Origin: Burkholderiales bacterium
Lineage (GTDB): Bacteria; Pseudomonadota; Gammaproteobacteria; Burkholderiales; JAEUOS01
Assembly: GCA_016790695.1 (NCBI GenBank)
Contig: JAEUOS010000001.1
Span: 822 to 64,821 of the forward strand
DNA: 64,000 nucleotides
Reading direction: 5' to 3'
Shown in pieces: positions 6,716 to 37,974 of this stretch (the first letter of the stretch is position 1; each line of letters begins with the position of its first letter). Both the position numbers and the translations under genes were made by a program. The notes under the pieces are model-generated. The model saw nothing but the letters and a program-made list of their open reading frames with translations. It ran no database searches and was not told the origin of the DNA.

Positions 6716-6720
6716 TTTTT

Positions 6721-6757
6721 GGATTCAAACAATCCAATTCATTGTATTGCCGAATCC
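6721..6757. promoter_or_regulatory. Candidate LysR-type operator in the divergent promoter
   Basis: GGATTC (6721-6726) / GAATCC (6752-6757) inverted repeat. It encloses the interrupted palindrome CAAT-N7-ATTG (6730-6744), directly upstream of the LysR start. Confidence 0.3.
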
Positions 6758-6847
6758 ATTTTCCTTCCCTATCCTGCAGCGCACCGTCGGCCCGCGAGCG
6801 CATCCGTCCGGCGGGAACCCGCATTCCTGCCGCAACCACGCCAGCCC

Positions 6848-9444: not shown

Positions 9445-9723
9445 CCAGGGCGTTGCCGGGGTTCCGGCTCAGTCGCGCTGACTTTCGGCGCCCCCGACCG
9501 CATCGGCTTGGGGCGCTGCCCCATTGGCGCTGCCGGCCGGGCGGCTCCAACAGTGGCGCAGTGCAGGGCGTGACCACCCCTTTTTCGCCCTGGCGCGCGA
9601 GGGCCGCAGTCACCATCGAACCGCAACGCTCGGCAGGCCCATCGCACCTAAGCCGAGGTTGCGGCCGACGGGTAACCGGGAAGGCGCGCCTGGTCGAAGC
9701 GTAGGAATTTCAGGAGATCATTT

Positions 9724-10833
9724 ATGAACGTGGCCGCGAAGCCCTTTCGCATCGACCATGTTGGCAGCCTGTTGAGGCCGCCGGCGCTTCGCCGGGCGCG
9801 CACCGACTGGATGGCCGGGCACCTGCGGCACGAGGCGCTGACCGCGATCGAGGATCAGGCGATTCGCGAGGCCGTCGTACTCCAGGAGCGCGCCGGGCTG
9901 GCGGTGATCACCGACGGCGAGTTCCGACGCGTCTCGTGGCGCGACGGCTTCTTCGAGAGTGTCGACGGCTTCTCGGCCGAGCGCGACCCAGCGGACTTCG
10001 AATTCCGCCTGGCCGGCGGCAAGCGCCAGCGTGCCGCGCCTGTGCCGCGAGTGATCGGGCGTCTCGTGCGCCGCAAGGGCATCGCCTCCCACGAGTTCGC
10101 CTTCCTCAAGACCGTCACGGATCGTACACCCAAGGTCACGCTGCCGGCGCCTTCGGTGATGCACTTCTTCCGCGGCCGGCAGGCGATCGATCCGGCGGTT
10201 TACCCGGACGTCGAGGCATTCATGTCTGATGTGTCTCGCATATATCGCGAGGAGTTGGCCGAATTGGCCGCGCTCGGCTGTACCTATGTGCAGTTCGATG
10301 AAGTCGCGCTGCCGATCCTTTGCGACGAGGGAATCCGTGCTTTTCTCGCTTCGCGCGGCGACGACGTCGACCAGACCATCGGACTCTACATCGATGCGCT
10401 CAACGCCGCCCTGGCCGACCGCCCCGCCGGCATGACCGTGGTGCTGCACATGTGCCGCGGCAACGTCGGTGAAGGCATGGGCTCCGGCGGTTACGAACCG
10501 ATCGCCGAGCGCGCCTTTAGCGAGATCAATGTGGACGGCTTCCTGCTTGAGTACGACCGTGCTGGTACGGGCGGGTTCGATCCGCTGCGCCACGTACCGA
10601 CGAACAAGATCGCCCTGCTCGGCCTGATCAGCACCAAGCAGCGTGAGATCGAAAGCGAGGACTACGTAAAGGCGCGCCTCGACGAGGCGGCGCGCCACCT
10701 CGATCTCAGGCGTGCGGGCCTGTGTCCCCAGTGCGGCTTTGCAAGTGGCTACCGCACCGACCGAATGTCGGTCGACGACGAGGAAAGGAAGCTCGCGCAG
10801 CTGGTGCGGCTGGGGGCATTGCTTCCGGACTGA
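9724..10833 (+). CDS. Cobalamin-independent methionine synthase (MetE C-terminal domain)-like methyltransferase family protein
   Basis: 369 aa. N-terminus FRIDHVGSLLRPP and single-domain length fit the COG0620 short family, not full-length MetE. AGGAG RBS 7 nt upstream. Confidence 0.82.
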   Translation: MNVAAKPFRIDHVGSLLRPPALRRARTDWMAGHLRHEALTAIEDQAIREAVVLQERAGLAVITDGEFRRVSWRDGFFESVDGFSAERDPADFEFRLAGGKRQRAAPVPRVIGRLVRRKGIASHEFAFLKTVTDRTPKVTLPAPSVMHFFRGRQAIDPAVYPDVEAFMSDVSRIYREELAELAALGCTYVQFDEVALPILCDEGIRAFLASRGDDVDQTIGLYIDALNAALADRPAGMTVVLHMCRGNVGEGMGSGGYEPIAERAFSEINVDGFLLEYDRAGTGGFDPLRHVPTNKIALLGLISTKQREIESEDYVKARLDEAARHLDLRRAGLCPQCGFASGYRTDRMSVDDEERKLAQLVRLGALLPD

Positions 10834-10969: not shown

Positions 10970-11200
10970 ATGACCTCCGTAACAATCGAATTGCCCGATG
11001 GCCTTGCCGAAGAAGCGCGCAAGCGCGGGTTGTTGTCGAGCGAAGTCCTTGCGCCGGTGCTCTCCGAAATGCTACGCCTCGAATCCGCGGCAGAATTGCG
11101 GGACCTGCTTGCCAGCCATCCGGCAACCGAGCCCACGCCAGCGGCTTCCGATACTAGGACAATCATCGATGCGGTGCGGCGCCAGTTCCGCGCGGCGTGA
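10970..11200 (+). CDS. Putative antitoxin of a PIN-type toxin-antitoxin pair
   Basis: 76-aa ORF. Its TGA stop is immediately followed by the ATG of the PIN gene (tgaatg). The call rests on size and position; I did not recognise a family. Confidence 0.55.
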   Translation: MTSVTIELPDGLAEEARKRGLLSSEVLAPVLSEMLRLESAAELRDLLASHPATEPTPAASDTRTIIDAVRRQFRAA

Positions 11201-11623
11201 ATGCGTGTCGTACTTGACACCAACATCCTGATCTCGGCTTTCGGCTGGGGTGGCGTTCCGGGCCAAGTGCTGCTCTCCGGGCTCACCGGGCAAGTGGAGC
11301 TTTGCACCAGCCCACAACTTTCTGCAGAGCTGAAACGCGTCTTCGCGCATCCCACGGTGGCGCATGCGTTGGCCAAGCGCGGGCTGTCGGCATCCGATCT
11401 TCACCGACGGTATCTGGCCAGTGTGCTGTCGCTTGAGGCTGCACCGCTGCCCAGACCGGTATGCCGCGATGCCGACGATGACCATGTGCTTGCATGCGCC
11501 ATCGCCGCGGACGCGGACCTGATTGTCTCGGGAGACGAGGACTTGCTGTCTCTGCGTACCTATGAAGGCATTCCCATCCTGACGGCGGCGGCGGCACTTG
11601 CCAGGATTGTCGCTACGCCCTGA
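11201..11623 (+). CDS. PIN-domain toxin (PIN_3 / TIGR00305-like putative ribonuclease)
   Basis: 140 aa. N-terminal MRVVLDTNILISA plus later acidic motifs (DADDDHVLACA, IVSGDEDLL) fit the PIN acidic quartet. Confidence 0.8.
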   Translation: MRVVLDTNILISAFGWGGVPGQVLLSGLTGQVELCTSPQLSAELKRVFAHPTVAHALAKRGLSASDLHRRYLASVLSLEAAPLPRPVCRDADDDHVLACAIAADADLIVSGDEDLLSLRTYEGIPILTAAAALARIVATP

Positions 11624-11658
11624 TCTGCTTCGCAGGCGCGAAGTCCGGCAGTAGTCCG

Positions 11659-11994
11659 CTAGGACCGCCGGTCCAGGCTCTGCCGGGCGCCCTCGTGGCG
11701 GCGCTCGCCGCCGAGGGCGTGCAGCAGGTGGTTGAGCGCGAGCTGGCATTGGCGCGCGCGGTTGTCGGCGGCGACGTCGCGCTCGTGCATGATCCAGCTG
11801 GCCAGCATCTGCCGCAGGGTCTGCCGGCCCTCGTCGGTCTGCGCGAGCACGTTCAACTCCATCAGCGCCGTGGTCGCGGTCAATCCCTCCTGGTGCACGA
11901 TCGCCTCGACGGCCACGTCCACATCCTCGACCGTGACTTCGCAGCCCAGGATCTCGCAGACCTCGTTGCGCAGATCTTCATATCCGCCAATCAT
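11659..11994 (-). CDS. Hypothetical small acidic protein
   Basis: High-GC3 ORF. I prefer the ATG at 11994 (MIGGYEDL...) because GGGAGA lies 5 nt upstream. The track ORF begins at a GTG at 12024. No family recognised. Confidence 0.5.
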   Translation of the reverse strand: MIGGYEDLRNEVCEILGCEVTVEDVDVAVEAIVHQEGLTATTALMELNVLAQTDEGRQTLRQMLASWIMHERDVAADNRARQCQLALNHLLHALGGERRHEGARQSLDRRS

Positions 11995-12019
11995 CGTTGT
12001 CTCCCGTCGTCTTCGGCGC

Positions 12020-12047
12020 GTCACATCGCTGTCACACGCCTGTCATC
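12020..12047. repeat. Three helically phased direct repeats GTCACA / GTCACA / GTCATC
   Basis: Repeat starts at 12020, 12031 and 12042 (exact 11-bp period). They lie just upstream of the preferred start of the small acidic ORF and in the divergent fbaB spacer. Confidence 0.3.
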
Positions 12048-12185: not shown

Positions 12186-13247
<1,062 letters not shown>

Positions 13248-13281
13248 GGCCGCGCGCCGGCGGCGGCCCCGCGGGCGCGGG

Positions 13282-14253
13282 TCAGTCGGCCCGGATGTTG
13301 CCCTTGCGGATGACCTGCGCCCACTTGTCGGACTCGGCCTGGACGAAACGCGCCAGGTCGTCCGGGCTGCCGGGACGCGTCTCGATGCCGGCATCGGCGA
13401 GCTTCTGCCGCACGTCGGGCTCGGCCAGCGCGAGGTTGAGCGCGCGGTTGAGCTGGTTCACCGCGGCCGGCGGCGTGCCCGCCGGCGCGAACATGGCGGC
13501 CCAGCCGATCACTTCGAACCCCGGCACGCCGGATTCCGCCACCGTGGGCACCTCCGGCGCCGAGGCGACGCGCCGTCCGGCGGTGACCGCCAGCGCGCGC
13601 AGCTTGCCGGCCTTGACCAGCGGGGTCGAGGACCCGATGTTGTCGAACATGAACTGCACCTGCCCGCCCACCAGGTCCTGCAGCGCCGGCGCGCTGCCCT
13701 TGTAGGGCACGTGCTGGTAGTCGAGGTTCAGGGTCTGCTTGAGCAGTTCCGCCGCGAGGTGCGAGGAACTGCCGATCGACGGCGTGCCGTAGTTGAGCTT
13801 GCCCGGATTCCTGCGCGCGTACTCGACGAATTCGGCGAAGCTCCTGATCGGCAGCCCCGGCGTCACCAGCAGCCAGGCCGCGTTGAAGCCGTGGAAGCCC
13901 ACGGGCGCGAAGTCGCGCTCGGCGTTGTAGGGCAGCTTGCCCATGTGGGGCGCGGTGGCGTGCGTGACGATGGTGCCGAGCAGCACCGTGTGCCCGTCGG
14001 GCGCGGCCTTGGCGACGAAATCGGCGCCGAGCGTGGCGCCGGCGCCCGGCCGGTTGTCGATCACCAGCGTCTGGCCGAGCTCGGCGCCCATGCGCGGCGC
14101 GATCAGCCGCGCCATCAGGTCGACCACGCCGCCGGCGGCGAACGGCACGACGATGCGCACCGGCCGCGTCGCGAAACTCTGCGCCTGCGCAGGCGGCAGC
14201 GCAAGCGCGGCCAGTGCCGCGCCCAGGAAGAAACGCGCAAGACGCGATCGCAT
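13282..14253 (-). CDS. Bug/TctC-family substrate-binding protein (2 of 7)
   Basis: ATG at 14253 gives MRSRLARFFLGAALAALALPPAQAQ, then RPVRIVVPFAAGG...IDNRPGAG. The rest of the 13282..15321 track ORF is a read-through artefact. Confidence 0.9.
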   Translation of the reverse strand: MRSRLARFFLGAALAALALPPAQAQSFATRPVRIVVPFAAGGVVDLMARLIAPRMGAELGQTLVIDNRPGAGATLGADFVAKAAPDGHTVLLGTIVTHATAPHMGKLPYNAERDFAPVGFHGFNAAWLLVTPGLPIRSFAEFVEYARRNPGKLNYGTPSIGSSSHLAAELLKQTLNLDYQHVPYKGSAPALQDLVGGQVQFMFDNIGSSTPLVKAGKLRALAVTAGRRVASAPEVPTVAESGVPGFEVIGWAAMFAPAGTPPAAVNQLNRALNLALAEPDVRQKLADAGIETRPGSPDDLARFVQAESDKWAQVIRKGNIRAD

Positions 14254-14255
14254 GG

Positions 14256-15236
14256 TCAGGCCTCCAGGATGAACTTGCCGAAATGCCGGTTCTCGCGCAT
14301 CGCCGCGTGCGCGCGGTCCGCCTCGGCGAGCGCGAACACCTTCTCGACCGGCATCGCGAACGCGCCGCTGGCCGCCGCGCCGCCGAAGTCGTCCCACGCC
14401 GCCCTGACCACCGCGGCGAACTCGGCGACATCGCGGGTGCGGAAGGTCACGCCGATCAGGGCGATGCGCTTGCGCGACAACTCGTTGAGATCGACCGGGC
14501 CGGAGATTCCGCCCATGCGCCCGATCTGGATCCAGCGCGCGCCCAGTGCGGCCATCGCGAGATGGTCGTCGATGGCCTTGGCGCCGACCATGTCGACGAT
14601 CACGTCGGCACCGGCGCCGCCGGTCGCGCGCATCACCGCCTCCGCGGCGCCGCCCTGGGCATGGTCGATGCCGTGCGTGAGTCCGTACTGCGCCAGGCGC
14701 GCGAGCTTCGCCGCGCTCGCGGTCCCCGCGATCACGCCGGCACCCCGGGCGCGCGCGATCTGCGCGGCCGCGATGCCGACGCCGCTGGAGGCCGCCTGGA
14801 TGAACACCGCCTCGCCCTTTGCCAGGCGGCCGTTGGTGACGATCGCATCGTGCGCGGTGAACAGCGCCACCGGGATCGCGGCCGCTGCCGCCCACCCCAG
14901 CCCGGCCGGTACGCGCACCGCAAGGCGGTGGTCCAGCAGCACCTGCTCCGCGTACGCACCGGCGGGCATGCCCATGACCCGATCGCCAATCGCGTAGCCC
15001 TTGACGTCGGCGCCCATGCCGATGACCTCGCCGGCCGCCTCCAGCCCGGCGATGGGATGGGGCGGCCTGGTCGGGATGCGCGCATAGTGCCCGGCGTTGA
15101 GCGCCAGGTCCGCGCGGTTGATGCCGACCGCGCGCACCTTGACCAGCAGGTCGTTGGCGCCGGGCACCAGGTCGGCGACATCGCGCCACGCCAGGCGCGC
15201 CGCGCCCTCGGTCTTCTCCACCAGCCATGCCTTCAT
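14256..15236 (-). CDS. Zinc-independent MDR-family NAD(P)H:quinone oxidoreductase-like protein
   Basis: MKAWLVEK...LLVKVRAVGINRADL... and AASSGVGIAAAQIA nucleotide-binding motif. Start at 15236 makes an ATGA overlap with the upstream gene. Confidence 0.88.
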   Translation of the reverse strand: MKAWLVEKTEGAARLAWRDVADLVPGANDLLVKVRAVGINRADLALNAGHYARIPTRPPHPIAGLEAAGEVIGMGADVKGYAIGDRVMGMPAGAYAEQVLLDHRLAVRVPAGLGWAAAAAIPVALFTAHDAIVTNGRLAKGEAVFIQAASSGVGIAAAQIARARGAGVIAGTASAAKLARLAQYGLTHGIDHAQGGAAEAVMRATGGAGADVIVDMVGAKAIDDHLAMAALGARWIQIGRMGGISGPVDLNELSRKRIALIGVTFRTRDVAEFAAVVRAAWDDFGGAAASGAFAMPVEKVFALAEADRAHAAMRENRHFGKFILEA

Positions 15237-15667
15237 TTCGCGCGCTCCCATTCGACCACCGCAGCGCGGCGCTTGTCGCCGATCTGCCATTCCCCGACCA
15301 GGTCGACCCGGTCAGGCCCATGCCAGCGCGCGTGGCGGCGCTGGCTCTCGCCGATCCAGTTGGGCAACAGGCTCAGCTCGATGTGATGGATCATGTCCTC
15401 GCCGTCGGCGTCCCAGCGCCCGCAATAGGTGACGTAGTCGTCGAAGGCGCGCACCTTTTCCTCGACGGTTGCCTGCAGGCGGTCGGACACCGCGAACCGC
15501 GGCGCCGCCGCGCGCTGCATGGTGCCCATCATGAAGCCCGCCGCAGTGTAGGTGATGTAGCCGCGCGCATCGCGCCCGAGCGGATAGAACTTCTCGCCGC
15601 CGGTGTACTGGGTCCAGTAGCCGAGCAGCGTCCAGGTGCCGATGATGGGATGGGTTCGCGCTGTCAT
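15233..15667 (-). CDS. Lipocalin-like domain protein (PF13924-like)
   Basis: 144 aa. N-terminus HPIIGTWTLLGYW...PLGRDARGYITYTAAGFMMG matches the lipocalin-like family. Confidence 0.7.
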   Translation of the reverse strand: MTARTHPIIGTWTLLGYWTQYTGGEKFYPLGRDARGYITYTAAGFMMGTMQRAAAPRFAVSDRLQATVEEKVRAFDDYVTYCGRWDADGEDMIHHIELSLLPNWIGESQRRHARWHGPDRVDLVGEWQIGDKRRAAVVEWERAK

Positions 15668-15702
15668 GAACTTCCTTCCATTGCCGCCGCGGCGACGCCC
15701 GC

Positions 15703-16431
15703 CTACGCGAGATAGTGGCCGCCATCGACGTACAGGATGTTGCCGGTCGAATAGGCATTCTGCATCAGGAACAGCGCCGCTGCTGCGGCGTCCTCCGGCA
15801 GCCCGATGCGCGCGACCGGCAGGCCGGCCGCCCACTTGTCGAGCATTTCCTGGCGCGCGGCCTCCGGCATGTCGCCAAAGCTCGACGAGGCGATGCGCCC
15901 CGGCGCCACCGCATTGACGCGCACCGGCGCCAGGTCCAGCGCCATGCCGCGCGTGAGCCCCTCGATGGCTGCCTGCACCGCGGCCAGCGCGGCCATCGCC
16001 TTGATCGGCCGGCGGCTGGCGCCGCCGCCGAACAGGGTGATCGAGCCGCCTTTGGCGATGTGCGGCGCCGCCAGCTTGGCGCACAGGTACTGCGCCCAGA
16101 ACTTGTTGTCGAACAGCGCGCGGGCGTCTGCCGTCGGCTGCTCCAGAAAGCTGGTGTAGCGCTGGCGCGTCGACCCCGGGCCGACGGTGACCACCAGGTG
16201 GTCGATCGGCGCCTGCGCAGCAAAGAGCGCCGCGAGCTGGCCTTCGTCGCGCGCGTCGACCGGCGCGGTGGCCACGCCTGCGCCGACGTCGCGCGCCGCG
16301 GCGGCGAGCTTGCCGGCGTCGCGCCCCGCGATCACCACCCGCGCGCCGGCCGCGGCGGCCGCCTTCGCCACCGCGAGGCCGATGCCGCTGCCGCCGCCGA
16401 CCGCGACCACCTTGCTGTCCGCCAGTTTCAT
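15703..16431 (-). CDS. SDR-family oxidoreductase
   Basis: MKLADSKVVAVGGGSGIGLAVAKA (TGxxxGxG-like motif). Classical short-chain dehydrogenase length. Confidence 0.85.
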   Translation of the reverse strand: MKLADSKVVAVGGGSGIGLAVAKAAAAAGARVVIAGRDAGKLAAAARDVGAGVATAPVDARDEGQLAALFAAQAPIDHLVVTVGPGSTRQRYTSFLEQPTADARALFDNKFWAQYLCAKLAAPHIAKGGSITLFGGGASRRPIKAMAALAAVQAAIEGLTRGMALDLAPVRVNAVAPGRIASSSFGDMPEAARQEMLDKWAAGLPVARIGLPEDAAAAALFLMQNAYSTGNILYVDGGHYLA

Positions 16432-16462
16432 CGCTTTTCCCTTCGTCGCGCCCCTCGGCCGG

Positions 16463-17116
16463 TCAACGCAGCGGCGAGATCGCCAGCGGCCGCAGGAAAC
16501 GCCGCGCATGAGCGCGGGTCAGGCCCTGCGTCTCCCGCTGCGCGCGCTGCCAGGAACGGTCGGCGGCAAGCGCGGCCTGCGCGCGGTCGCGCGCGGCCAT
16601 GCCCTCCCAATACCACAGGTGCACCACTTCGCCGGTCATGCCGGTAAGGCCGCGCATGGAGCACACCAGGCGCGCGCCCGCCGCCGCCATCCGCGGCAAC
16701 AGCCGGCGTGCGAATTCCGCCTCGAAGGCGGCAGTATCGCCGGGTTCGGTGAGGGTGACGCATTCCTCGACGAAGGCGTGCGGATCCGCCGCGCCGGCCA
16801 CGGCGAACGGCGGGACCACGTCATGTGTCTCAAACAGGCGCACTTCCTGGCGGAGGACGCGCCCGCGCGCACCGGCCTGGTACGCGCGCCAGGCCGGATC
16901 GGCGTCCCGCAATGCGCGCCGGCTCTCGCGATCGGCGAGGCTGTCGTGCTTCCAGTAATGCACCACCTGGTGCAGATTGCCGGCCTCGACGCCGAAGTAG
17001 CCCGCCAGCGCCAGGCCGTGGCGCAGCGACACCGGCAGCCCGTGCAGGGCATAGTTGGCGACATAGTCGCCCACCTGCCCCACGGCGATGTCGTAGGTGC
17101 GCGCCTCGACGATCAT
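16463..17116 (-). CDS. NIPSNAP-family protein (two NIPSNAP repeats)
   Basis: 217 aa. MIVEARTYDI...GNLHQVVHYWKHDSLADR, and a second repeat with GEVVHLWYWEGMAARD. Confidence 0.75.
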   Translation of the reverse strand: MIVEARTYDIAVGQVGDYVANYALHGLPVSLRHGLALAGYFGVEAGNLHQVVHYWKHDSLADRESRRALRDADPAWRAYQAGARGRVLRQEVRLFETHDVVPPFAVAGAADPHAFVEECVTLTEPGDTAAFEAEFARRLLPRMAAAGARLVCSMRGLTGMTGEVVHLWYWEGMAARDRAQAALAADRSWQRAQRETQGLTRAHARRFLRPLAISPLR

Positions 17117-18087
17117 CCGTCGACCTTGAGGTTGATGCGCCGCGCCAGGCCACCCCAGCGCTCGGTGGCTTCCTTGAGCGCGGCCGCGAGGGCTTCCGGG
17201 CTGCTGCCGACCGGCTCGCTGCCCAGCGCGTTGTAGCGCTCGCGGATCTCGGGGGTCTTGAGCGCTGCGGCGATCTCGGCGGAGAGCCGGTCGACGACCG
17301 CGCGCGGCGTTGCCGCCGGCGCATAGACCGCGTGGAACGAGCTCGAGTCGTAGCCTGCCACCCCCGCTTCCTCCATGGTCGGCAGGTCGGGAACCTGGGC
17401 CAGCCGCCGCTTCGCGCCGGTGGCCAGCATGCGCACCTTGCCGGCGCGCGCCTGGTTGAGCGCCGCCGCGGTCGAGTCGAACATCATCGTCACCTGGCCG
17501 CCGATCAGGTCGGTCATCGCCGGCGCGCCGCCCTTGTACGGCACGTGCACGATGTCGATCCCGCCCAGATGCCGGAGCTGCTCGCCGAGCAGGTGCACCA
17601 CGCTGCCGGTGCCGGGCGAGGCGAAGGTCAGCCGGCCGGGGTTGGCCCTGGCGTCGGCGATGAGCTCGCGCACCGTCCTGTACGGCGAGGCCGCGGCGAC
17701 GATCAGGATGCCCTCGACGGTGGCGACCAGGCTCACCGGCGCGAAGTCCTTGACCGGGTCGAACCCGAGCTTCGGATAGATCGCGGGATTGACCGCCATG
17801 GTGCCGGTCGGCGACCAGAAGAACGTGTGGCCGTCGGGCGCCACCCGCGCCACATGCTCGGCGCCGATGTTGCCGTTGGCGCCGGCACGGTTGTCGATCA
17901 CGAACTGCTGGCCCATGCGCTCGGACAGGCGCTGCAGCAGGGGGCGCGCGAGGTTGTCGGTCGGGCCGCCGGGCGGAAACGGAATCACCACGCGGACCGG
18001 CTTGGCCGGCCAGGACTGCGCGACCGCGCGCCCGGCGGCAAGGCCGGCACCGGCGACGGCGGCGGCAACGAAAGTGCGTCTGTTCAT
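17113..18087 (-). CDS. Bug/TctC-family substrate-binding protein (3 of 7)
   Basis: Tat/Sec-like leader MNRRTFVAAAVAGAGLAAGRAVAQ, then WPAKPVRVVIPFPPGGPTD...IDNRAGANG. ATGA overlap with the next gene. Confidence 0.9.
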   Translation of the reverse strand: MNRRTFVAAAVAGAGLAAGRAVAQSWPAKPVRVVIPFPPGGPTDNLARPLLQRLSERMGQQFVIDNRAGANGNIGAEHVARVAPDGHTFFWSPTGTMAVNPAIYPKLGFDPVKDFAPVSLVATVEGILIVAAASPYRTVRELIADARANPGRLTFASPGTGSVVHLLGEQLRHLGGIDIVHVPYKGGAPAMTDLIGGQVTMMFDSTAAALNQARAGKVRMLATGAKRRLAQVPDLPTMEEAGVAGYDSSSFHAVYAPAATPRAVVDRLSAEIAAALKTPEIRERYNALGSEPVGSSPEALAAALKEATERWGGLARRINLKVDG

Positions 18088-18106
18088 GGTCCCTCCTTGC
18101 CTGCGG

Positions 18107-18988
18107 TCAGTGCACGGGCGCGAGGCCGCGCGCCTGCGCGAAGCGCCGCGCGAACGCCTCGTACTGCGTCGGTTCGCGGCCCAGCATCAGCGCCAGCGTG
18201 CGCCAGTTGCCGCCCGGCGCGCCGTGGCGGTCGAATTCCTCGAACATGGTGCGAAGGATCGCCATCTCGCGCGGATCGCGGCCCGCCCAGTGCGGCAGCG
18301 CCATGTACGCGTCGAGCGGCATGGCGACGGCGCGGATCGCGCGGCCGGTGACCCGCGACCAGATCGCGGCCAGTTCGTGCCGGGTCAGCGGCGTCTTGGC
18401 GCTCGCCATTTCGTAGACCCCGTAGTCCCAGCCCGGCTCGGTGAGCACGCGCGCCACCGCTTCGGCGTAGTCGTCGAGGTCGAGCCAGGAGATCAGCGAA
18501 TCGGCCGAATAGGGAAAGACGAACTCGCCGGCATCGATCATGCGCTCCCAGTTCCAGGCGACGTTCTGCATGTAGTTGGTCGGCTGGAAGATGCGCCAGG
18601 GCAACCCCGCGTGCATCGCCAGTTCCTCGACCGCGCGCTTGTGGTTGTGGAAGCGGATCGCGCTGACCTGCGAGTTGATGACGCTGTGGAGCGCGATCGT
18701 GCGCACGCCCGCCGTGACGGCGGCGTCGATGACGTTGCGCCCGTTCTGCACCTCGTCGGGCTTCATGCGCGGCGGAATGTGGAACACGGTCGCGGCGCCG
18801 GCGAAGGCGCGCACGAGCGCAGCGCGGTCGGCGAAGGTGGCCAGCGCGGTCCGGTCCGCGCCGGCGTCCCGGCAGGCCGCCGCCGAGGACGCGCGCGTCA
18901 CCACCGCGCAGACCGCCACGCCGCGCGCCTTGAGCGCGGCGATCACCGCGCGCCCGGTGACGCCGCCGGCGCCGGTGATGGCGATCAC
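18107..18988 (-). CDS. NmrA-like NAD(P)-binding protein (paralogue A)
   Basis: GTG at 18988 gives VIAITGAGGVTGRAV (Rossmann motif). GTGA overlap with the stop of paralogue B. Shares VLTEPGWD and overall collinearity with the neighbour. Confidence 0.8.
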   Translation of the reverse strand: MIAITGAGGVTGRAVIAALKARGVAVCAVVTRASSAAACRDAGADRTALATFADRAALVRAFAGAATVFHIPPRMKPDEVQNGRNVIDAAVTAGVRTIALHSVINSQVSAIRFHNHKRAVEELAMHAGLPWRIFQPTNYMQNVAWNWERMIDAGEFVFPYSADSLISWLDLDDYAEAVARVLTEPGWDYGVYEMASAKTPLTRHELAAIWSRVTGRAIRAVAMPLDAYMALPHWAGRDPREMAILRTMFEEFDRHGAPGGNWRTLALMLGREPTQYEAFARRFAQARGLAPVH

Positions 18989-19851
18989 GCCGCGCCGCGC
19001 TCGCGCGCCACGCGCGCGACGAACTCGCGATAGGTCGTCGGCGTCCGCCCGAGGATCATCGCCAGCACGCGCGCATTGCCGCCCGACAGGCCGTACCGGT
19101 CGTAATGCGCGTACATGGTGGCGACGCGCTCGACCTGGAACGGGGTGCGCGTCTTCGCGCCGATCGGCCGCCATTCATCGATCGCATACGCCTCGGCGCG
19201 CACCGGCCTGCCGAGCACGTCGCCGATGGTGGCGGCCATCTCGTCGCGCGTCAGGTTGTCGCCGCTGCACAATTCGAAGCCGCCGCCGTCCCAGCCGGGC
19301 TCGGTCAGCACCGTCGCCGCCGCACATGCGATGTCCTCGAGGTCGACCAGGCTCATGCGCGCGCCGGTCGCGTAGGGCGCCCGGTAGACACCGCGCTGCG
19401 TGACGTTGTCCCACTCCCACAGCATGTTCTGCATGTACATGGTCGGCTGCAGGAACGTGTAGGGGATCAGCGACTCGATGATCAGTCCCTCGACCACGCG
19501 CTTGTCGCGGTGGTGCAGCAGGGCGTCGACCTGGGCGTGGATCAGGCTGTGGAACACCAGCTGATCGACCCGTTCCGCGCGCGCCGCCGCGATCACGTTC
19601 TGCCCGATCGGGATCTCCGCGTCGCTCATCACCGGGCAGATGTGATAGACGCGGCTGGCGCCTTCGAGGGCGCGGCGCACGTCCGCGGCGCTCTTCAGGT
19701 TGCCGAGCACCACGTCGGTGGCGCCGGCCGCGCGCACCTTGTCGGCGGACTCCGGGCGGCTCACCATCGCGCGCGCCGGCACGCCCAGGGCCTTCAGGCG
19801 CCGCAGCGCCGCCGTGCCGGTCTGGCCGGCGGCGCCGAGGATGACGATCAC
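18985..19851 (-). CDS. NmrA-like NAD(P)-binding protein (paralogue B)
   Basis: GTG at 19851 gives VIVILGAAGQTGTAA. GTGA overlap with the cupin gene stop. The remainder of the 18985..21606 track ORF is a read-through artefact. Confidence 0.8.
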   Translation of the reverse strand: MIVILGAAGQTGTAALRRLKALGVPARAMVSRPESADKVRAAGATDVVLGNLKSAADVRRALEGASRVYHICPVMSDAEIPIGQNVIAAARAERVDQLVFHSLIHAQVDALLHHRDKRVVEGLIIESLIPYTFLQPTMYMQNMLWEWDNVTQRGVYRAPYATGARMSLVDLEDIACAAATVLTEPGWDGGGFELCSGDNLTRDEMAATIGDVLGRPVRAEAYAIDEWRPIGAKTRTPFQVERVATMYAHYDRYGLSGGNARVLAMILGRTPTTYREFVARVARERGAA

Positions 19852-20411
19852 GCCGCGCCCTTGGCGTAGGGATCGACGCCGGCGGCGCGGTCGGCATCGA
19901 TCACTTCCTGCGGCACGAACAGGCCGCGGTTCGGATCCTCGACGTTGTCGTAGATCACCATCACCATGCCGGCCTCGCCGGGCTCGCCCTGCTGCTCGAC
20001 GCGGCGCCACAGCATCGGCGGCACCGAGAAGGTGTCGAACGGGCCGAGCTCGACGAACTCCTCGGGGTCCTTGTTGAAGAAGATGCGGTAACGCCCCTTG
20101 ATCGGCATGAAGATCTCGCGGTACTCGTGGGCGTGGATCACCGGCGAGTTGCCGGCCTTCGACTCGATGAAGCACATGTGGAAGCTGTGCGGGGTGGAGA
20201 TGCCGGCCGGCGCGGCCTTGTTGCCGGTCGAGATCACGTACTTGATCGGCAGGCGCCTGGTCGGGTCGCCCTTGTCGACGAAGGCGTTCGGGTCGACCTT
20301 CAGGTCGCGGTAGAAGGCGACGTTCTTCATCACCTCGGCGGTCGGCATCTCGACGCCGGGGCCGGCGACGCGGGTGTACAGCGTGGTGCCTTCGGCGGTG
20401 GTCTGGCTCAT
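19848..20411 (-). CDS. Cupin-domain protein
   Basis: 187 aa. His-rich beta-barrel core (PHSFHMCFIE...VIHAHEYREIFMPIKG) fits the cupin metal motifs. Confidence 0.72.
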   Translation of the reverse strand: MSQTTAEGTTLYTRVAGPGVEMPTAEVMKNVAFYRDLKVDPNAFVDKGDPTRRLPIKYVISTGNKAAPAGISTPHSFHMCFIESKAGNSPVIHAHEYREIFMPIKGRYRIFFNKDPEEFVELGPFDTFSVPPMLWRRVEQQGEPGEAGMVMVIYDNVEDPNRGLFVPQEVIDADRAAGVDPYAKGAA

Positions 20412-20423
20412 GGCATGCTCCTT

Positions 20424-21188
20424 TCAGGCGAGGCGTGCGGCGAGGAGGCGGTTGTACTCGTCGGCGCAGAGGATGTAGGGGTAGTGGCCGCCGCCGGCCA
20501 GGTTGTGCGCCGCGGCCTGCGGATAGCGTTCGCGCACCGCCGCGCGCACCGGCGCCGGGATCACCGGGTCGTTGTCGCAGTCGATCACGGTGATGCGCGC
20601 CTGGTCGAGCCCGAGCGGCGGCACCGGCGCGGCCAGCTGCACGGCGAGCATGCGCGCGCGCAACAGCGCCGCGTCCTGCTTCGCGCCGATCAGGTCGAGC
20701 TGGATGTCGCGCAGCTCGCTCGCCGGGGCGGCGCGCACGCGCGCGAGCACCTGCTCCTTCAGGGTCTCGGCCGGCGTGTCGCGCGCGCTCGCGAGCTTGT
20801 CGGGCGCCTGCACCGGCCCGGGGTCGACGAAGGTGCAGGTGAGGACGAGCCGGTCGACGCGCGCGGGATGCCGCGCGGCGAACAGCTGCGCGACATAGCC
20901 GCCCAGCGAGGTGCCGGCCACGCTTGCCCGCGCGATGCCCAGGCGGTCGAGGAACGCCGCCAGGCCGTCGGCGAGCGTCGCACCGTCGGTCTCGGCCGGA
21001 TAGGTCACCGACACCAGGCGCAGGCGCCCGGCCAGCGCGAACTGCTTGTGGAAGATCTCGGCGGTGCCCTGCGCACCCGGCAGCAGGACCACGCACGGGC
21101 CGCTGCCGGCATCCACGCAGGGCCAGGCGACGCCGTTCACGTCGATGCTGCGGACCGCGTGCCCGCGGCGGAACTCCTCGAGCGTCAT
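20424..21188 (-). CDS. Alpha/beta-fold hydrolase
   Basis: Nucleophile elbow GTSLGG plus an oxyanion-region LLPG motif. Start chosen at MTLEEF (21188); the alternative is 21236. Confidence 0.8.
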   Translation of the reverse strand: MTLEEFRRGHAVRSIDVNGVAWPCVDAGSGPCVVLLPGAQGTAEIFHKQFALAGRLRLVSVTYPAETDGATLADGLAAFLDRLGIARASVAGTSLGGYVAQLFAARHPARVDRLVLTCTFVDPGPVQAPDKLASARDTPAETLKEQVLARVRAAPASELRDIQLDLIGAKQDAALLRARMLAVQLAAPVPPLGLDQARITVIDCDNDPVIPAPVRAAVRERYPQAAAHNLAGGGHYPYILCADEYNRLLAARLA

Positions 21189-21289
21189 GCTGTTTCCCGA
21201 TGTCCGGTTGATGGGTCGGACGATTGTAGGAACCACCCCGCGGTGACGCTATCTGCGTCTCGACATAGTTAATATCTCCTTGGTGGATA

Positions 21290-22213
21290 ATGGTGCGCAT
21301 GCCTGCCGACCGTCTCCCCGACCTGCAGCTGATCGCGGCGCTCGAGGCCCTCGTCGCCGAAGGCCACGTCTCGCGCGCGGCCGAGCGCATGGGCCTGAGC
21401 CAGCCGGCGATGAGCACGCTGCTCGGCCGGCTGCGCCGCACCTTCGACGACCCGCTGCTCCTGCGGACGTCGCGCGGCATGGTGCCGACGCCGCGCGCGC
21501 TCGAGCTCGCGGCGCAGGGGGGCGCGCTCCTCGAGCAGGCGCGCATGCTGATGCAGGGCGCGCGCGCGTTCGAGCCGGTGCGCGCCGAGCGCACCTTCCG
21601 CGTCATCGCGACCGACTACGTGCTCTCGGTGATGCTGCCGCCGCTGCAGGCGCTGCTGGAGGCGCGCGCGCCGGGCATCGGCATCGACGCGCAGCCGCCG
21701 AACCCGCGGCGCGTGCAGGAGCTGCTCGCGTCGGGCCAGGTCGACCTCGGCATCGGCTACCTCATCGATCCGCCGAAGGGACTGCGCACCCGCCTCCTGT
21801 TCCGCGAGAGCTCGGTGTGCATCGCGCGCCGCGGCCACCCGGCGGTGCGCGGCCGGCTGGGCCTCGCGCAATACCAGGCCGCCGACCACGTGCGCATCAG
21901 CCCCGCCGGCACGGGGCAGTACGGGCGCATGGTCGAGGCCGCGCTCCTCGACCTGCGCATCCGGCGCTCGGCCGGTCTGACGGTGCCCAACTTCCTGGTC
22001 GCGCCGGCCGTCGTCGCCCGGAGCAACCTGCTGGCCACCGTGCCGGCACGGATCGCGCGCACCTTCGCGGCATCGCTGCCGCTGCAGGTGCTGGAGCCGC
22101 CGGTGCCGCTGCCGGTGCTCGAGGTGTCGCTGTACTGGCACGAGCGCGCGCACAAGGACGCGCTGCACCGCTGGATGCGCGCGCTGGTGATCGAGGCGGC
22201 GCGCGAGGTGTGA
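21290..22213 (+). CDS. LysR-family transcriptional regulator
   Basis: LQLIAALEALVAEGHVSRAAERMGLSQPAMSTLLGRLR wHTH. Divergent from the 10-gene minus-strand operon. Confidence 0.9.
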   Translation: MVRMPADRLPDLQLIAALEALVAEGHVSRAAERMGLSQPAMSTLLGRLRRTFDDPLLLRTSRGMVPTPRALELAAQGGALLEQARMLMQGARAFEPVRAERTFRVIATDYVLSVMLPPLQALLEARAPGIGIDAQPPNPRRVQELLASGQVDLGIGYLIDPPKGLRTRLLFRESSVCIARRGHPAVRGRLGLAQYQAADHVRISPAGTGQYGRMVEAALLDLRIRRSAGLTVPNFLVAPAVVARSNLLATVPARIARTFAASLPLQVLEPPVPLPVLEVSLYWHERAHKDALHRWMRALVIEAAREV

Positions 22214-22224: not shown

Positions 22225-22977
22225 CTAGGGCATGATCTCGCCGCCGTTCGGGTGCAGCAGCTGGCCGCAGTAGTAGCGCCCCTCGTCGGAGGCCAGGAAC
22301 ACGAAGGCCGAGGTCATGTCCTCGGGGGTGCCGAGGCGCTTGAGCGGCAGGCTCGCGGCGTGCGCGGCCTTGACCGCCTCGGGCAGCGGGTCGAAGCCGG
22401 TGTCGACCAGGCCGGGCGCGACGCCGTTGACGAGCACGCCGTGGGGCGCCAGCTCCTTGGCCAGCGCGCGCGTGAAGGCGATCACCCCGCCCTTGGCGGT
22501 CGAGTACGCGGTGTAGTTCTCGCGCCCGATGTAGCCCAGCTGCGAGCACAGGTTGATGATGCGCCCGGACTTCGCCGCCATCATGTGGCGCGCGGCGGCG
22601 CGCGAGCACAGGAAGGCGCCGCGCAGGTGCACGGCCATCATGCGGTCCCAGTCGGCGACGCTCATCTCGACGATCGGCTGCGGGCGCTGGATGCCGGCGT
22701 TGTTGACGAGGATGTCGAGCCGGCCGAAGCGGGCGACCACCTCGGCGAAGGCCGACTCGACCTCGGATTCCTGGGTGACGTCGGCGCGCAGCGCCTGCGC
22801 GTGGCGGCCGCGTGCCTCGATCTCGCGCACCAGCGTCGCCGCCTCCTCCTCGCGGGCGACGAACAGCACCGCGACGTCCGCACCTTCGTCGGCGTAGGCC
22901 AGCGCCACCGCGCGGCCGATGCCGGTGTTGCCGCCGGTGATCACGGCGACACGCCCGGCGAGTCGTTGCATGCTCAT
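22225..22977 (-). CDS. SDR-family oxidoreductase
   Basis: MSMQRLAGRVAVITGGNTGIGRA (TGxxxGxG), NNAG, YxxxK (YSTAKGG). ATGA-type overlap with the upstream gene. Confidence 0.9.
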   Translation of the reverse strand: MSMQRLAGRVAVITGGNTGIGRAVALAYADEGADVAVLFVAREEEAATLVREIEARGRHAQALRADVTQESEVESAFAEVVARFGRLDILVNNAGIQRPQPIVEMSVADWDRMMAVHLRGAFLCSRAAARHMMAAKSGRIINLCSQLGYIGRENYTAYSTAKGGVIAFTRALAKELAPHGVLVNGVAPGLVDTGFDPLPEAVKAAHAASLPLKRLGTPEDMTSAFVFLASDEGRYYCGQLLHPNGGEIMP

Positions 22978-23717
22978 TGGACCTCCTGGAACAGCCGCCC
23001 CCAGCCGCGCACGCGGCGGGTGTCGACGCCGGCGAGCTTCAGGCACTTCCACACCGCCGTGGCGATGCTGTCGTAGATCGGGATGCCGGTCTCGGCCTCG
23101 AGCGCCTCGACCAGGGGCGCGGCCTTGAGATTCGTGCACAGCGGGATGATCGCCTGCGGACGCGCGCGCGCGACCGCGCGCACCATGCCGGCGATCGCCT
23201 CCGGCGTCACCTCGGAGAACGAGAAATTGTGCGACAGGCCGAGGTGCTGCTCGGCCACCACCCGAAAGCCCGCCTGCGCGTAGTTGGCGTCGATGCGCGC
23301 CTGCACGTCGTCGGTGTAGGGGGTGACGAAGGCGATGTCGCGCGCCCCGGTGAGGCGCAGGATCTCGTTGATCGCCAGCACCGACGTGCCGGCCGGGATG
23401 CCGGTCGTCGCGGTCAGCTCGCGGCACAGCGTCTCGTCGGTGCCGAAGCCGAGCCAGGACGAGGAGGTGCCGTTCCAGGCGATCGCATGCAGCTCCGCGT
23501 CGGCCAGCAGGTCGGCCGCCGCGAGGATGTTGGCGCGGTCGAACTGGCCGAGCGCGGCGTCGGACAGCGCGATCGTGCGCACGCGAAAGCGCCCGAAGTG
23601 CGCGGTCACCTCCGGCAGGCCGGCGAGCATCATCGTCGTGATCGGCTCGAGCGCCGTGTTCGATGACGGCGTCAGCATGCCGATCAGGGTGCGTCGCGGC
23701 ATCGTCGTGGATTCCAT
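22974..23717 (-). CDS. Maleate isomerase / arylmalonate decarboxylase-like protein (Asp/Glu racemase superfamily)
   Basis: 247 aa. LIGMLTPSSNTALEP N-terminal motif and a second-half CTNL motif fit the two-Cys maleate isomerase/AMDase family. Confidence 0.78.
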   Translation of the reverse strand: MESTTMPRRTLIGMLTPSSNTALEPITTMMLAGLPEVTAHFGRFRVRTIALSDAALGQFDRANILAAADLLADAELHAIAWNGTSSSWLGFGTDETLCRELTATTGIPAGTSVLAINEILRLTGARDIAFVTPYTDDVQARIDANYAQAGFRVVAEQHLGLSHNFSFSEVTPEAIAGMVRAVARARPQAIIPLCTNLKAAPLVEALEAETGIPIYDSIATAVWKCLKLAGVDTRRVRGWGRLFQEVQ

Positions 23718-23744
23718 GAATGGGCTGCGGGCGGCCGGCGGCGC

Positions 23745-24440
23745 TCAGCCGGCGAGCGCCTCGGCCAGGTCGAAGGCGGCCTCGGGAGGCGGCGCCATGT
23801 CGAGCCCCTCCTCGACCTCGTTGAGATGGGCGAGCATCAGGCGCGCGGCGCGCGCGCCGTCGCCGCGCGCGATCGCGGCCGCGATCTCGACATGGTCGTC
23901 GCCGCGGCAGGCGGGCGTGTTGGGACTCTCGTAGAGGTAGATGACGAGGCTGGTCAGGGTCTCGAGTTCGCGCAGCATGCGCAGCATCAGCTGGTTGCCG
24001 GCCAGCTCGGCGAGCAGCAGGTGGAACTCGCCGGTCAGCCGGATCAGCGCACGATGGTCGTCGCGCGCCGCCGCCTCGGCCTCGCGCTTCAGGTGCGCCT
24101 CGAGGCGGCGCTCGACCGCGCGGTCGGTGCGCGCCGCCAGCGTCTGCACGATCGCCGGCTCGAGCAGCCGGCGCAATTCGAACACCTCGCGCGCCTGCTC
24201 GGCGGTCGGCTCGCTGATCGCCGCGCCGCGGTTGGGATGCAGGGTGACGATGCCCTCGTGCGCGAGCCGCGCCAGCACCGGCCGCACGCGCGCGCGATTG
24301 ACGCCGAACACCTGCGCCAGGCGGTCCTCGACCAGGCGGGTCCCCGGCGGCAGCCGGTGCTCGACCACCGCGGCCATGATGCGCTCGACCATCTGTTCCT
24401 GGGTCGGCGGGCGGTTGGCGTGGGTGGTCTTGGCAGGCAT
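23745..24440 (-). CDS. GntR-family (FCD/FadR-subfamily) transcriptional regulator
   Basis: wHTH LPPGTRLVEDRLAQVFGVNRARVRPVLARLAHEGIV plus an all-helical C-terminal FCD-like domain. Start chosen at MPAKTT. Confidence 0.85.
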   Translation of the reverse strand: MPAKTTHANRPPTQEQMVERIMAAVVEHRLPPGTRLVEDRLAQVFGVNRARVRPVLARLAHEGIVTLHPNRGAAISEPTAEQAREVFELRRLLEPAIVQTLAARTDRAVERRLEAHLKREAEAAARDDHRALIRLTGEFHLLLAELAGNQLMLRMLRELETLTSLVIYLYESPNTPACRGDDHVEIAAAIARGDGARAARLMLAHLNEVEEGLDMAPPPEAAFDLAEALAG

Positions 24441-24530
24441 GGCGTCGCCGCATTCTAATCGCGCCCCCGGCAGGGCACGCACCGAACCGGGTCATCGATG
24501 CACCCGAATGGTGTACAAACAATTTGACGT

Positions 24531-24564
24531 ATTGTTGACAAAATGCGTGATGTTAGTCAACAAT
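24531..24564. promoter_or_regulatory. Candidate GntR operator: perfect 9-bp inverted repeat
   Basis: ATTGTTGAC (24531-24539) and GTCAACAAT (24556-24564), 16 bp apart, in the AT-rich divergent GntR/racemase spacer. A third TTGAC lies at 24524-24528. Confidence 0.4.
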
Positions 24565-24620
24565 CTTTCGGTCCCGGAGCCGCGCCGCATCACGGCGCGC
24601 TGCCGGAGGAAGGGGGGGCG

Positions 24621-25355
24621 ATGAAGCTGCTGCTGGTCAACGGCAACCGCACACGGGCGGTGACGGCCGCCGTGCTGGCCGAGGCGCAGGCGACGGCCGC
24701 GGACGGCACCGAGCTGGTCGCCGTCGAGGCGGCGTTCGGCGCCGACATCGTGTTCTCCCACGCCGAGAACGCGGTCGCCACCCACGCGGTGCTCGACGCG
24801 CTCGCGCGCCACGCCGGCGGCTGCGACGCGGCGATCCTCGCGATCTCGTTCGATTCCGGCCTTGCCGCGGCGCGCGAGCTGCTGCCGATGCCGGTGCTGG
24901 GCATCACCGAAGCCGCGCTCCTGACCGCGTGCCAGCTCGCCCGCCGCGTCGGCGTCGTCACGGTCGGCCGCGTCTCGAGCAGCCTGTATGCCGAGGTGTT
25001 CGCGCAGACCGGCCTCGGCGACCGGATCGCGGCGGTCGGCACGGTCGACATGGCGTCGGCCGGCGAGTACCTGTCGCCGCAGGATTTCGACGCGCGCGTC
25101 GTCGCCGAGGCCAATCGCCTCGCCGCCGAGGCCGGCGCCGAAGCCGTCGTCGCCTGCGGCGCGGCCCTCGCGGGCATCGCGCGGCGCGCGCGCGCGGCGG
25201 TCGCGGTGCCGCTGGTCGACGGTGTCGGCGCCGCGGTGCGCCAGGCCGAGGCGCTGGTGCGCGGCGGCTATCGCGCGCGCGCGCGGCCCGCGGGCCCGCG
25301 CGCCACCATGGCCGGGGTGTCGGCCGAACTCGCCGCGCTGTTCGCGCGCCCCTAG
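24621..25355 (+). CDS. Hydantoin/allantoin racemase-family protein (Asp/Glu/hydantoin racemase superfamily)
   Basis: MKLLLVNGN... start with GGAGGAAGGGG RBS. 244 aa, with conserved AAILAISFDSG and VVACGAAL segments as in HyuE/HpxA-type racemases. Confidence 0.78.
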   Translation: MKLLLVNGNRTRAVTAAVLAEAQATAADGTELVAVEAAFGADIVFSHAENAVATHAVLDALARHAGGCDAAILAISFDSGLAAARELLPMPVLGITEAALLTACQLARRVGVVTVGRVSSSLYAEVFAQTGLGDRIAAVGTVDMASAGEYLSPQDFDARVVAEANRLAAEAGAEAVVACGAALAGIARRARAAVAVPLVDGVGAAVRQAEALVRGGYRARARPAGPRATMAGVSAELAALFARP

Positions 25356-25363
25356 CTGCGGCC

Positions 25364-27798: not shown

Positions 27799-27833
27799 GG
27801 CGCGTTCCTCACGATCACGACATGGAGAACCGC

Positions 27834-28292: not shown

Positions 28293-28344
28293 GCCGCCCG
28301 CGCCCGCCCTGCCCCCACGACCCACGCTTTCCGGAGAATTCACC

Positions 28345-28803: not shown

Positions 28804-28837
28804 CCCCACCCCACCCTCGCGATCGAAAGGATCCACC

Positions 28838-29836: not shown

Positions 29837-29855
29837 ACGCGCCCAGGCACGGGAG

Positions 29856-30347: not shown

Positions 30348-30357
30348 GGAGACCGCG

Positions 30358-37947: not shown

Positions 37948-37974
37948 GCTGTTGCTCCTCTTGCGGTGGCTTGG

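Follow-up and report, generated by a model that had tools for sequence, protein, structure and literature searches.

In the 5-nitroanthranilate pathway of Bradyrhizobium JS329, the product of ring fission by NaaB lactonises and is then opened by a dedicated lactonase, NaaC (PMC4539516). NaaB is a monocupin of ~180 amino acids (aa) that cleaves a hydroxy-aromatic carboxylate, and it invites comparison with a gene cluster at positions 13282-21188 on the minus strand of a 64-kb stretch of DNA from a metagenome-assembled, Rubrivivax/Ramlibacter-like Burkholderiales genome. We refer to the whole 64-kb stretch as the window. The cluster comprises ten genes (g1 to g10) that diverge from the gene of a LysR-type transcriptional regulator. 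With about even confidence, we propose that it may be a catabolic operon, activated by LysR, whose substrate is an aromatic or quinonoid carboxylate brought in by Bug proteins, the periplasmic solute-binding proteins of the TctC family. Its second gene, g2, encodes a cupin that, like NaaB, adjoins a lactonase-like hydrolase (g1). The two cupins differ in that they share 18% identity, a template-modelling (TM) score of 0.38 and no match at the sequence level, and g2 is without the motif-2 histidine. Furthermore, NmrA-like, Bug or LysR components could not be verified in the NaaB/NaaC pathway.

The mhp, dmp and xyl lower pathways offer a second comparison. The cupin module adjoins an equivalog of the hydratase MhpD in 11 of 33 related loci and a DmpH-like protein in some. 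In contrast to those pathways, the role of dioxygenase would fall to a cupin and not to an enzyme of the VOC (vicinal oxygen chelate) or LigB type, g1 resembles PcaD rather than MhpC, BphD or XylF, and the pathway genes are absent from the window. Among NCBIfam models, the enol-lactonase PcaD (TIGR02427) ranks first or second for g1, with most of the length aligned, but no pca or cat genes lie nearby. The NmrA-like proteins g3 and g4 have E. coli YtfG/QorB among their nearest solved relatives and share its family and N-terminal GxxGxxG motif, although the relationship is remote (E 1e-16) and g3 and g4 form a coupled pair of paralogues. The two Bug proteins of the operon (g5 and g10) resemble the orphan Bugs BugD, BugE, Bug27, TphC and AdpC in their full TctC domain, signal peptide, lack of adjacent TctA/TctB, location in catabolic operons and multiple copies. 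They differ in being equidistant from the characterised members, and the cupin module uses three Bug orthogroups. The 4-amino-3-hydroxybenzoate dioxygenase of Bordetella 10d has subunits of ~21 kDa. Its pathway was considered as a parallel and dropped; the second enzyme is a YjgF-type deaminase and not an alpha/beta-hydrolase (PMC6449761). No characterised cluster matching the gene set was found in the searchable literature, which agrees with the earlier note made from the DNA letters, where the combination was said to match no known pathway.

The window has ~72% GC, so raw lists of open reading frames (ORFs) are mostly noise. Coding segments were assigned by the phasing of GC at third codon positions (GC3), and gene starts by inspection of start codons and ribosome-binding sites. 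The result is ten successive minus-strand coding segments (13282-21188) whose junctions, from g1 to g10, measure 12, -4, -4, 19, -4, 31, 35, -4 and 2 nt; four are thus 4-nt overlaps. A terminator scan found no terminator-like sites in the intergenic gaps of the operon. Being co-directional, with short or overlapping junctions and terminator-free gaps, the ten genes probably form a single transcript. A candidate terminator 3' of g10 was rejected because shuffled sequence folds at least as well as the hairpin, and a convergent gene for a DeoC-family aldolase ends 34 nt past g10. Searches with Pfam and NCBIfam models assign the genes, in order, to an alpha/beta-hydrolase, a cupin, NmrA-like paralogues B and A, a first Bug protein (Bug1), a double-NIPSNAP protein, a short-chain dehydrogenase/reductase (SDR), a lipocalin-like protein, a quinone-oxidoreductase-like protein (QOR) of the medium-chain dehydrogenase/reductase (MDR) superfamily and a second Bug protein (Bug2). 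The earlier note had described ten co-directional minus-strand genes with junctions of -4 to +35 nt and four overlaps, named these families in this order and placed a divergent LysR gene next to them. The junctions agree exactly, every family assignment was confirmed and the LysR gene is divergent as described.

The LysR-type regulator (21290-22213, plus strand) carries HTH_1 (59.5 bits) and LysR_substrate (92.3 bits) domains and is separated from g1 by an intergenic region of 101 nt. Orthologues with 40-81% identity adjoin the module in 61% of the related loci. The intergenic region contains a perfect dyad, CTAT-N12-ATAG (21249-21268), which occurs nowhere else in the window and recurs with identical spacing in the intergenic regions of two relatives, L001 and L005. 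In this candidate LysR site, compared with the dyad-symmetric T-N11-A type, the tetramers are 12 nt apart; the site is not obviously kept in more distant loci. A TACAAT box resembling a -10 element (21223-21228, minus strand) belongs to a candidate operon promoter. It is also kept in L001 and L005, and reads TTCCTACAAT or TTTCTACAAT in the window and these two loci. A generic sigma-70 scan detected no full promoter in this 72% GC DNA. The conservation of both elements suggests that LysR controls the operon. No RNA genes turned up in the window when it was scanned with Rfam and for tRNAs.

The protein at the center of the proposal is g2 (19848-20411, minus strand), an uncharacterised monocupin. 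It scores 21.8 bits against Cupin_2, below the cut-off of 27.2, has no NCBIfam match and belongs to no named family and to no Pfam or NCBIfam dioxygenase family. Its own family consists of 83 homologue clusters with 55-93% identity, almost all of them metagenomic. The alignment contains an invariant G-x5-H93-x-H95-x3-E99-x6-G, and also H75, H78, E83, R136 and E139. HxHx3E is a classical metal site. Motif 2 reads P-x-x-L-W-R-R-V-E, where the invariant R136 and E139 stand in place of a histidine. The sequence has the motif-1 set of metal ligands, and the AlphaFold2 model is a confident beta-barrel (pLDDT 85.5). Its top Foldseek match is a monocupin of the same size, 5-nitrosalicylate 1,2-dioxygenase (8ch4, TM 0.38, 18% identity), and sugar ketoisomerases and isomerases are also among the top structural matches. 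In the PDB, sequence and profile searches led to a single entry, 3ibm, a protein of unknown function from structural genomics. A likeness to the mercaptosuccinate/cysteine dioxygenase-type cupin that occurs with LysR and TctC (PMC5373536) was rejected, as g2 matches no cysteine dioxygenase family.

The g2 family is rare. Scanning 185,579 species genomes with a profile turned up no more than 11 loci; those classified to order are all from Burkholderiales (Rubrivivax and Ramlibacter lineages), and the one cultured carrier among the 11 is Ramlibacter pallidus HM2 (L013). Another 37 loci came from a scan of metagenomes. When 1.84 billion representatives were searched exhaustively with an HMMER profile, 11 proteins matched at E<=1e-30 and 115 did so at E<=1e-10. 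Many of the matched proteins have 300-390 aa and two matched stretches, and are thus fused bicupins. These relatives match generic Cupin_2 only; 3-hydroxyanthranilate dioxygenase was rejected as a relative because it gave noise-level matches (~20 bits) in two of the bicupins. A paralogue, cupin2 (L032 5753-6430), is 26% identical to g2 and has the same HxH-x3/4-E motif and motif-2 arginine. It accompanies the g2-type cupin in several loci (also L010, L011, L017, L056-L059 and L064) and directly adjoins it in the distant loci L056-L059. Together, cupin2 and the fused bicupins suggest a two-domain enzyme that may be split or fused. Judged by its sequences, this is a new cupin family, rare, tightly conserved and unnamed, with predicted mono-, split- and fused-bicupin forms.

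Co-occurrence of other genes with the cupin was assessed in 33 loci whose cupin is at least 60% identical and whose flanks extend for at least 5 kb, with neighbours counted within 8 kb on either side. Because many of these loci lie on short metagenomic contigs and near-duplicates occur among them, the percentages should be read as approximate: Bug genes occur in 79%, NmrA-like genes in 64%, LysR and g1-type hydrolase genes in 61% each, MhpD in 33% (11 loci), GMC oxidoreductases in 27%, DmpH-like genes in 15%, double-DUF1330 genes in 12%, and SDR genes and the second cupin paralogue in 9% each. NIPSNAP, lipocalin and QOR genes were counted in one locus each. The cupin is 60-93% identical across the related loci. 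The earlier note had treated the ten genes as a unit whose order relatives might conserve. That order is not kept: only LysR, hydrolase, cupin, NmrA-like and Bug genes recur, and they are shuffled. The core set is found in at least five gene orders, and functional linkage therefore explains it better than shared ancestry alone. As a front module, LysR, hydrolase, cupin, NmrA-like B and A, and Bug1 occur on ~50 contigs, mostly metagenomic, in shuffled order, and the cupin is by far the most conserved member. The minimal arrangement, cupin, Bug and Bug only, is present in four loci, including that of the cultured Ramlibacter pallidus.

The downstream half of the operon is more variable. In L001 and L006, where the cupin is 86% identical and the flanking genes are the same, the lipocalin is missing and there are three additional Bug genes and one additional SDR gene. 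A 99-aa ORF in the same half of L001 (14301-14600) is a fragment of an MDR ADH_N domain and appears to be a decayed gene, pointing to rapid turnover there. The closest cupin (93% identical, L005) is without the hydrolase and NIPSNAP. All three closest relatives retain SDR and QOR downstream of the front module. Lipocalin homologues with 57-66% identity lead other Bug-containing operons. In L061, a lipocalin is accompanied by a protein of glyoxalase fold and by a Bug2 orthologue with 76% identity. In L063, LysR stands next to a lipocalin, with TctC and a QOR 58% identical to g9 further along. No g2 orthologue was mapped in either locus. Because orthologues of the lipocalin, QOR and Bug2 recur where no cupin orthologue was detected, the operon reads as a composite of a conserved front module and a lineage-specific back half (NIPSNAP, SDR, lipocalin, QOR and Bug2), the latter best seen as a separate, mobile module.

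The composite structure raises the possibility that two unrelated pathways merely share a promoter, with different substrates, a Bug protein each and no common chemistry. Nearly all relatives have the front module without the back module, each half ends in its own solute-binding protein, and the L061 and L063 loci as well as the turnover in L001 are what such an arrangement would produce. Nevertheless, SDR and QOR follow the front module in all three closest relatives, and L064 reunites LysR, QOR, TctC, a paralogous cupin, orthologues of g1 (51%) and g4 (64%), and a lipocalin (60%) in a different order. Translational coupling and the lack of internal terminators also suggest co-expression. We regard separate pathways as a possible but less probable explanation than a single catabolic operon.

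A double-DUF1330 protein is encoded near the cupin in six loci, mostly directly downstream (L032 5032-5811; L010, L017, L024, L030 and L033). Its N-terminus is lipoprotein- or Tat-like in L032 and L024. What the window encodes instead is a double-NIPSNAP protein, which is cytoplasmic. The NIPSNAP protein was rejected as a counterpart of double DUF1330, as the two have no detectable sequence similarity.

The neighbours of the module in relatives point to catabolism. In the other architectures, the gaps encode a GMC flavoprotein oxidoreductase, a 2-keto-4-pentenoate hydratase (MhpD) and a DmpH-like decarboxylase paralogue. MhpD equivalogs beside the module score 350.4 and 354.4 bits, just above the cut-off of 350. 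L042 encodes an acylating acetaldehyde dehydrogenase of the DmpF type (460 bits, cut-off 282), a 4-hydroxy-2-oxovalerate aldolase of the DmpG type (588 bits, cut-off 286) and a dehydrogenase resembling 2-hydroxymuconic semialdehyde dehydrogenase. In L017, the LysR-hydrolase-cupin group is flanked on one side (12970-17134) by a 169-aa ORF, a PnpD_N-containing protein, an aldehyde dehydrogenase and an iron-containing alcohol dehydrogenase, and on the other by a second block of NmrA, NmrA, TctC, cupin paralogue and SDR. We take PnpD_N to mark the large subunit of hydroquinone dioxygenase, and the L017 set to be a PnpCD-type hydroquinone pathway. By family assignment, these neighbours are signatures of aromatic ring-fission pathways. 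In the loci of the MhpD/DmpH type, the cupin or its paralogue is the only candidate identified for the cleavage step. Since HxHx3E is kept and lower-pathway neighbours occur in a third of the relatives, the cupin is the prime candidate for cleavage. The earlier note, which recognised no oxygenase or ring-cleavage enzyme in the operon, was too strong on this point, given this metal motif and the meta-cleavage neighbours.

The alpha/beta-hydrolase g1 (20424-21188, minus strand; Abhydrolase_6, 49.6 bits) is a candidate lactone or ester hydrolase. Its Ser-Asp-His set is intact, with a GTSLG nucleophile elbow, a DNDP acid and a GGGHYP histidine. The best NCBIfam models are PcaD-containing enol-lactonase models (56.8-58.2 bits against cut-offs of 255.85 and 390), and the scores for BphD, HsaD and PcaD are 26.6, 37.5 and 56.8 bits. 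Six orthologues likewise match PcaD best, with TIGR02427 ranked first for five of the six. A role as a meta-cleavage C-C hydrolase of the MhpC/BphD/XylF type was rejected, as the model scores of g1 and its orthologues alike favor PcaD. With scores of 45-68 bits across the family, g1 and its orthologues fall below the curated TIGR02427 cut-off of 255.85 and are not PcaD. No PDB relative of g1 was found below 1e-8.

The two NmrA-like proteins are putative NAD(P)H-binding reductases and retain an intact N-terminal GxxGxxG dinucleotide-binding motif, GAAGQTG in g3 (paralogue B, 18985-19851, minus strand; NmrA, 79 bits) and GAGGVTG in g4 (paralogue A, 18107-18988, minus strand; NmrA, 91 bits). They are paralogues with 42% identity and are translationally coupled. 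The conserved paralogue is g4, with orthologues of 59-72% identity in most related loci. Its nearest PDB entry is E. coli YtfG/QorB, a remote match at 1.5e-16, and those of g3 are 5f5n (a kosinostatin-type 'monooxygenase' entry), YtfG/QorB, triphenylmethane reductase and SimC7, all remote.

Both Bug proteins have a signal-peptide-like N-terminus. Bug1 (g5, 17113-18087, minus strand) scores 230 bits against TctC and has members of its orthogroup in L001, L005, L032 and L033; Bug2 (g10, 13282-14253, minus strand) scores 262.6 bits. No ligand can be inferred for either, because they are equidistant (E 1e-57 to 1e-72) from all structurally characterised members, namely BugE, the terephthalate-binding protein, Bug27, BugD and AdpC.

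The double-NIPSNAP protein g6 (16463-17116, minus strand; 116.6 bits in two stretches) is a lineage-specific accessory that occurs among cupin loci only in L001 and L006. It is 100% identical to a protein from a metagenome-assembled 'Burkholderiales bacterium' genome. It was rejected as a synteny anchor: the homologue search gave a short list (at least four proteins), and the more distant ones (54% and 44% identity) lie in other, unrelated contexts. The SDR g7 (15703-16431, minus strand; adh_short_C2, 126.6 bits) is atypical and PRK07041-like (242.4 bits, cut-off 257). It keeps the cofactor motif GGGSGIG, but alignment to a classical SDR from the window places L...Q at the YxxxK position, and the canonical Ser/Tyr/Lys are missing; g7 may use other catalytic residues or be non-catalytic. 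The lipocalin-like beta-barrel g8 (15233-15667, minus strand; Lipocalin_5, PF13924, 104.7 bits) was modelled with pLDDT 89. Foldseek matched it only to barrels of unknown function, with the lipocalin 4gzv on top (TM 0.56), and the literature on PF13924 yielded nothing functional for bacteria. The QOR g9 (14256-15236, minus strand) has ADH_N, ADH_zinc_N and ADH_zinc_N_2 domains and an AxxGxxG motif, and is zinc-free, as it contains no cysteines. It is close to the PIG3 family (TIGR02824, 247 bits over the full length), under the cut-off of 296.8.

In the catabolic operon that we propose, orphan Bug proteins would capture an aromatic or quinonoid carboxylate in the periplasm, and it would enter the cell through a TctAB channel encoded elsewhere. 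The metal-binding cupin would carry out an oxygen-dependent ring or C-C cleavage, and the PcaD-like hydrolase would open the resulting lactone, enol-lactone or ester. The QorB-like NmrA proteins, QOR and SDR may keep the substrate as a hydroquinone or reduce enone or keto intermediates, and LysR may sense the substrate or an intermediate. In a third of the relatives, MhpD, at times with a DmpH-like protein and, in one locus, DmpF/DmpG, would carry the products to pyruvate and acetyl-CoA; the version in the window has extra reductases in place of the MhpD, DmpH and DmpFG genes. The earlier note had envisaged a quinone, lactone or enone-type carboxylate delivered by the Bug proteins. This part of its account is retained with qualification: it fits the YtfG/QorB-near NmrA-like proteins, the PIG3-like QOR and the weakly PcaD-like hydrolase.

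Several observations weigh against this proposal. The lower-pathway genes for hydratase, aldolase and acetaldehyde dehydrogenase are absent across the 64-kb window, and the frequencies of neighbours in relatives are approximate for the reasons given above. The hydrolase resembles lactonases and not meta-cleavage C-C hydrolases, even when it shares an operon with MhpD. The cupin-Bug-Bug loci indicate that the cupin can work without hydrolase and reductases, and the Bug partners adjacent to the cupin belong to three different orthogroups. The cupin is without the motif-2 histidine of cupin ring-cleaving dioxygenases, matches none of the named dioxygenase families in Pfam, NCBIfam and PDB profile searches, and retrieves only generic cupins with Foldseek (TM <=0.47). 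No enzyme of the operon reaches a curated equivalog cut-off, and every chemical role is therefore assigned by analogy.

The same observations bear on a second alternative, in which the cupin is not an oxygenase but a metal-dependent isomerase, tautomerase, decarboxylase or lyase acting on an imported carboxylate, with its neighbours as incidental tailoring enzymes. The invariant Arg-x-x-Glu in place of the motif-2 histidine, the position outside all named dioxygenase families, the sugar ketoisomerases and isomerases among the top structural matches, and the minimal three-gene cupin operons with two Bug genes all favor it. We nonetheless consider it possible but less probable than an oxygen-dependent cupin: the HxHx3E site is classical, the top Foldseek match is a monocupin dioxygenase, and the module is associated with ring-cleavage lower pathways where no other dioxygenase was identified (architecture II). 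A detoxification regulon, in which LysR senses a quinone or other electrophile and induces reductases, a hydrolase, and lipocalin and NIPSNAP proteins for binding or sequestering, would suit the kinship of the NmrA-like proteins to YtfG/QorB and triphenylmethane reductase, the PIG3-like QOR, the missing route to central metabolism in the window and a back half with the redox-heavy, variable content frequent in stress regulons. It is nevertheless improbable, as two periplasmic solute-binding proteins point to uptake, relatives pair the module with MhpD, DmpH-like, DmpF/DmpG and PnpCD-type catabolic genes, and the most conserved member is the cupin and not a reductase.

Besides the catabolic operon proposed here, the window abounds in further aromatic-catabolic clusters, and every one of them has an orphan TctC gene of its own. 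There are seven TctC genes in 64 kb, at 8506-9444(+), 13282-14253(-), 17113-18087(-), 37975-38979(-), 40740-41753(-), 44455-45423(+) and 57385-58353(+), and no TctA or TctB among the window genes scanned. The Bug membrane channel must thus be encoded elsewhere, and the orphan Bug family is strongly expanded in this genome. Orphan TctC genes without adjacent TctA/TctB are the usual Bug arrangement in Burkholderiales. The lack of a membrane transporter, which the earlier note had remarked upon, is thus borne out for TctA/TctB among the genes scanned and is no peculiarity of the operon.

A second LysR divergon lies at 5777-10833 in the window. Its LysR gene (5777-6715, minus strand) faces a FAD-dependent aromatic-ring hydroxylase on the plus strand (ending at 8482), followed by a TctC gene and a MetE-like Meth_synt_2 protein (9724-10833). 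Between 8.6 and 11.6 kb, the GC content is lower (0.62-0.70) and the GC3 signal weak, so this DNA may have been acquired. Two minus-strand ORFs, 11072-11749 and 11659-12024, have no family match.

Directly past LysR, the region 22225-35478 begins with minus-strand genes for an SDR, an Amdase/maleate-isomerase-like protein and a GntR regulator. A plus-strand cluster follows that encodes a hydantoin-racemase-like protein, an amidohydrolase, a polysaccharide-deacetylase-like protein and two transthyretin/HIUase-like proteins, together with two tripartite ATP-independent periplasmic (TRAP) transporters and a second Amdase-like protein. Such a gene content is reminiscent of N-heterocycle or ureide catabolism. 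Two further aromatic-catabolic clusters, both with orphan TctC genes, occupy 35453-46696. The first, on the minus strand, includes a FAD monooxygenase, a VOC/glyoxalase-fold dioxygenase, TctC, a thiamine pyrophosphate (TPP) enzyme and another TctC, and adjoins an AraC regulator. The second encodes the alpha subunit of a Rieske oxygenase, a 125-aa ORF, TctC and a major facilitator superfamily (MFS) transporter. The region 46730-53258 encodes a 1180-aa protein resembling 2-oxoacid:ferredoxin oxidoreductase (TPP_enzyme_C, POR and DUF6537), which adjoins an Lrp/AsnC regulator and a 782-aa molybdopterin oxidoreductase.

The LysR divergon, the orphan Bug proteins and the catabolic mosaic are familiar Burkholderiales architecture. 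What is new here, on the strength of family searches and co-occurrence, is the cupin family and the five-gene module. More tentatively, and with less confidence than we place in a catabolic role for the operon, the cupin, with cupin2 and the fused bicupins, might represent an undescribed class of metal-dependent cleavage enzymes with an unrecognised Burkholderiales route for a naturally occurring aromatic or quinonoid carboxylate. One version of the route would feed an MhpD/DmpH/DmpFG lower pathway, and in the other, reductive one, that of the window, NmrA-like, QOR and SDR reductases would take the place of this pathway. Should the cupin prove to be something other than an oxygenase, what remains is a routine mosaic operon for catabolism. 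Members of the Burkholderiales are often important in degrading aromatic organic matter, yet the many orphan Bug-linked operons of this order are largely unassigned. In the present case, a puzzling list of ten genes is reduced to a testable five-gene core around one small, rare and very conserved cupin. The identity of its substrate would annotate the whole clade of mono- and bicupins and give ligands for three Bug orthogroups.

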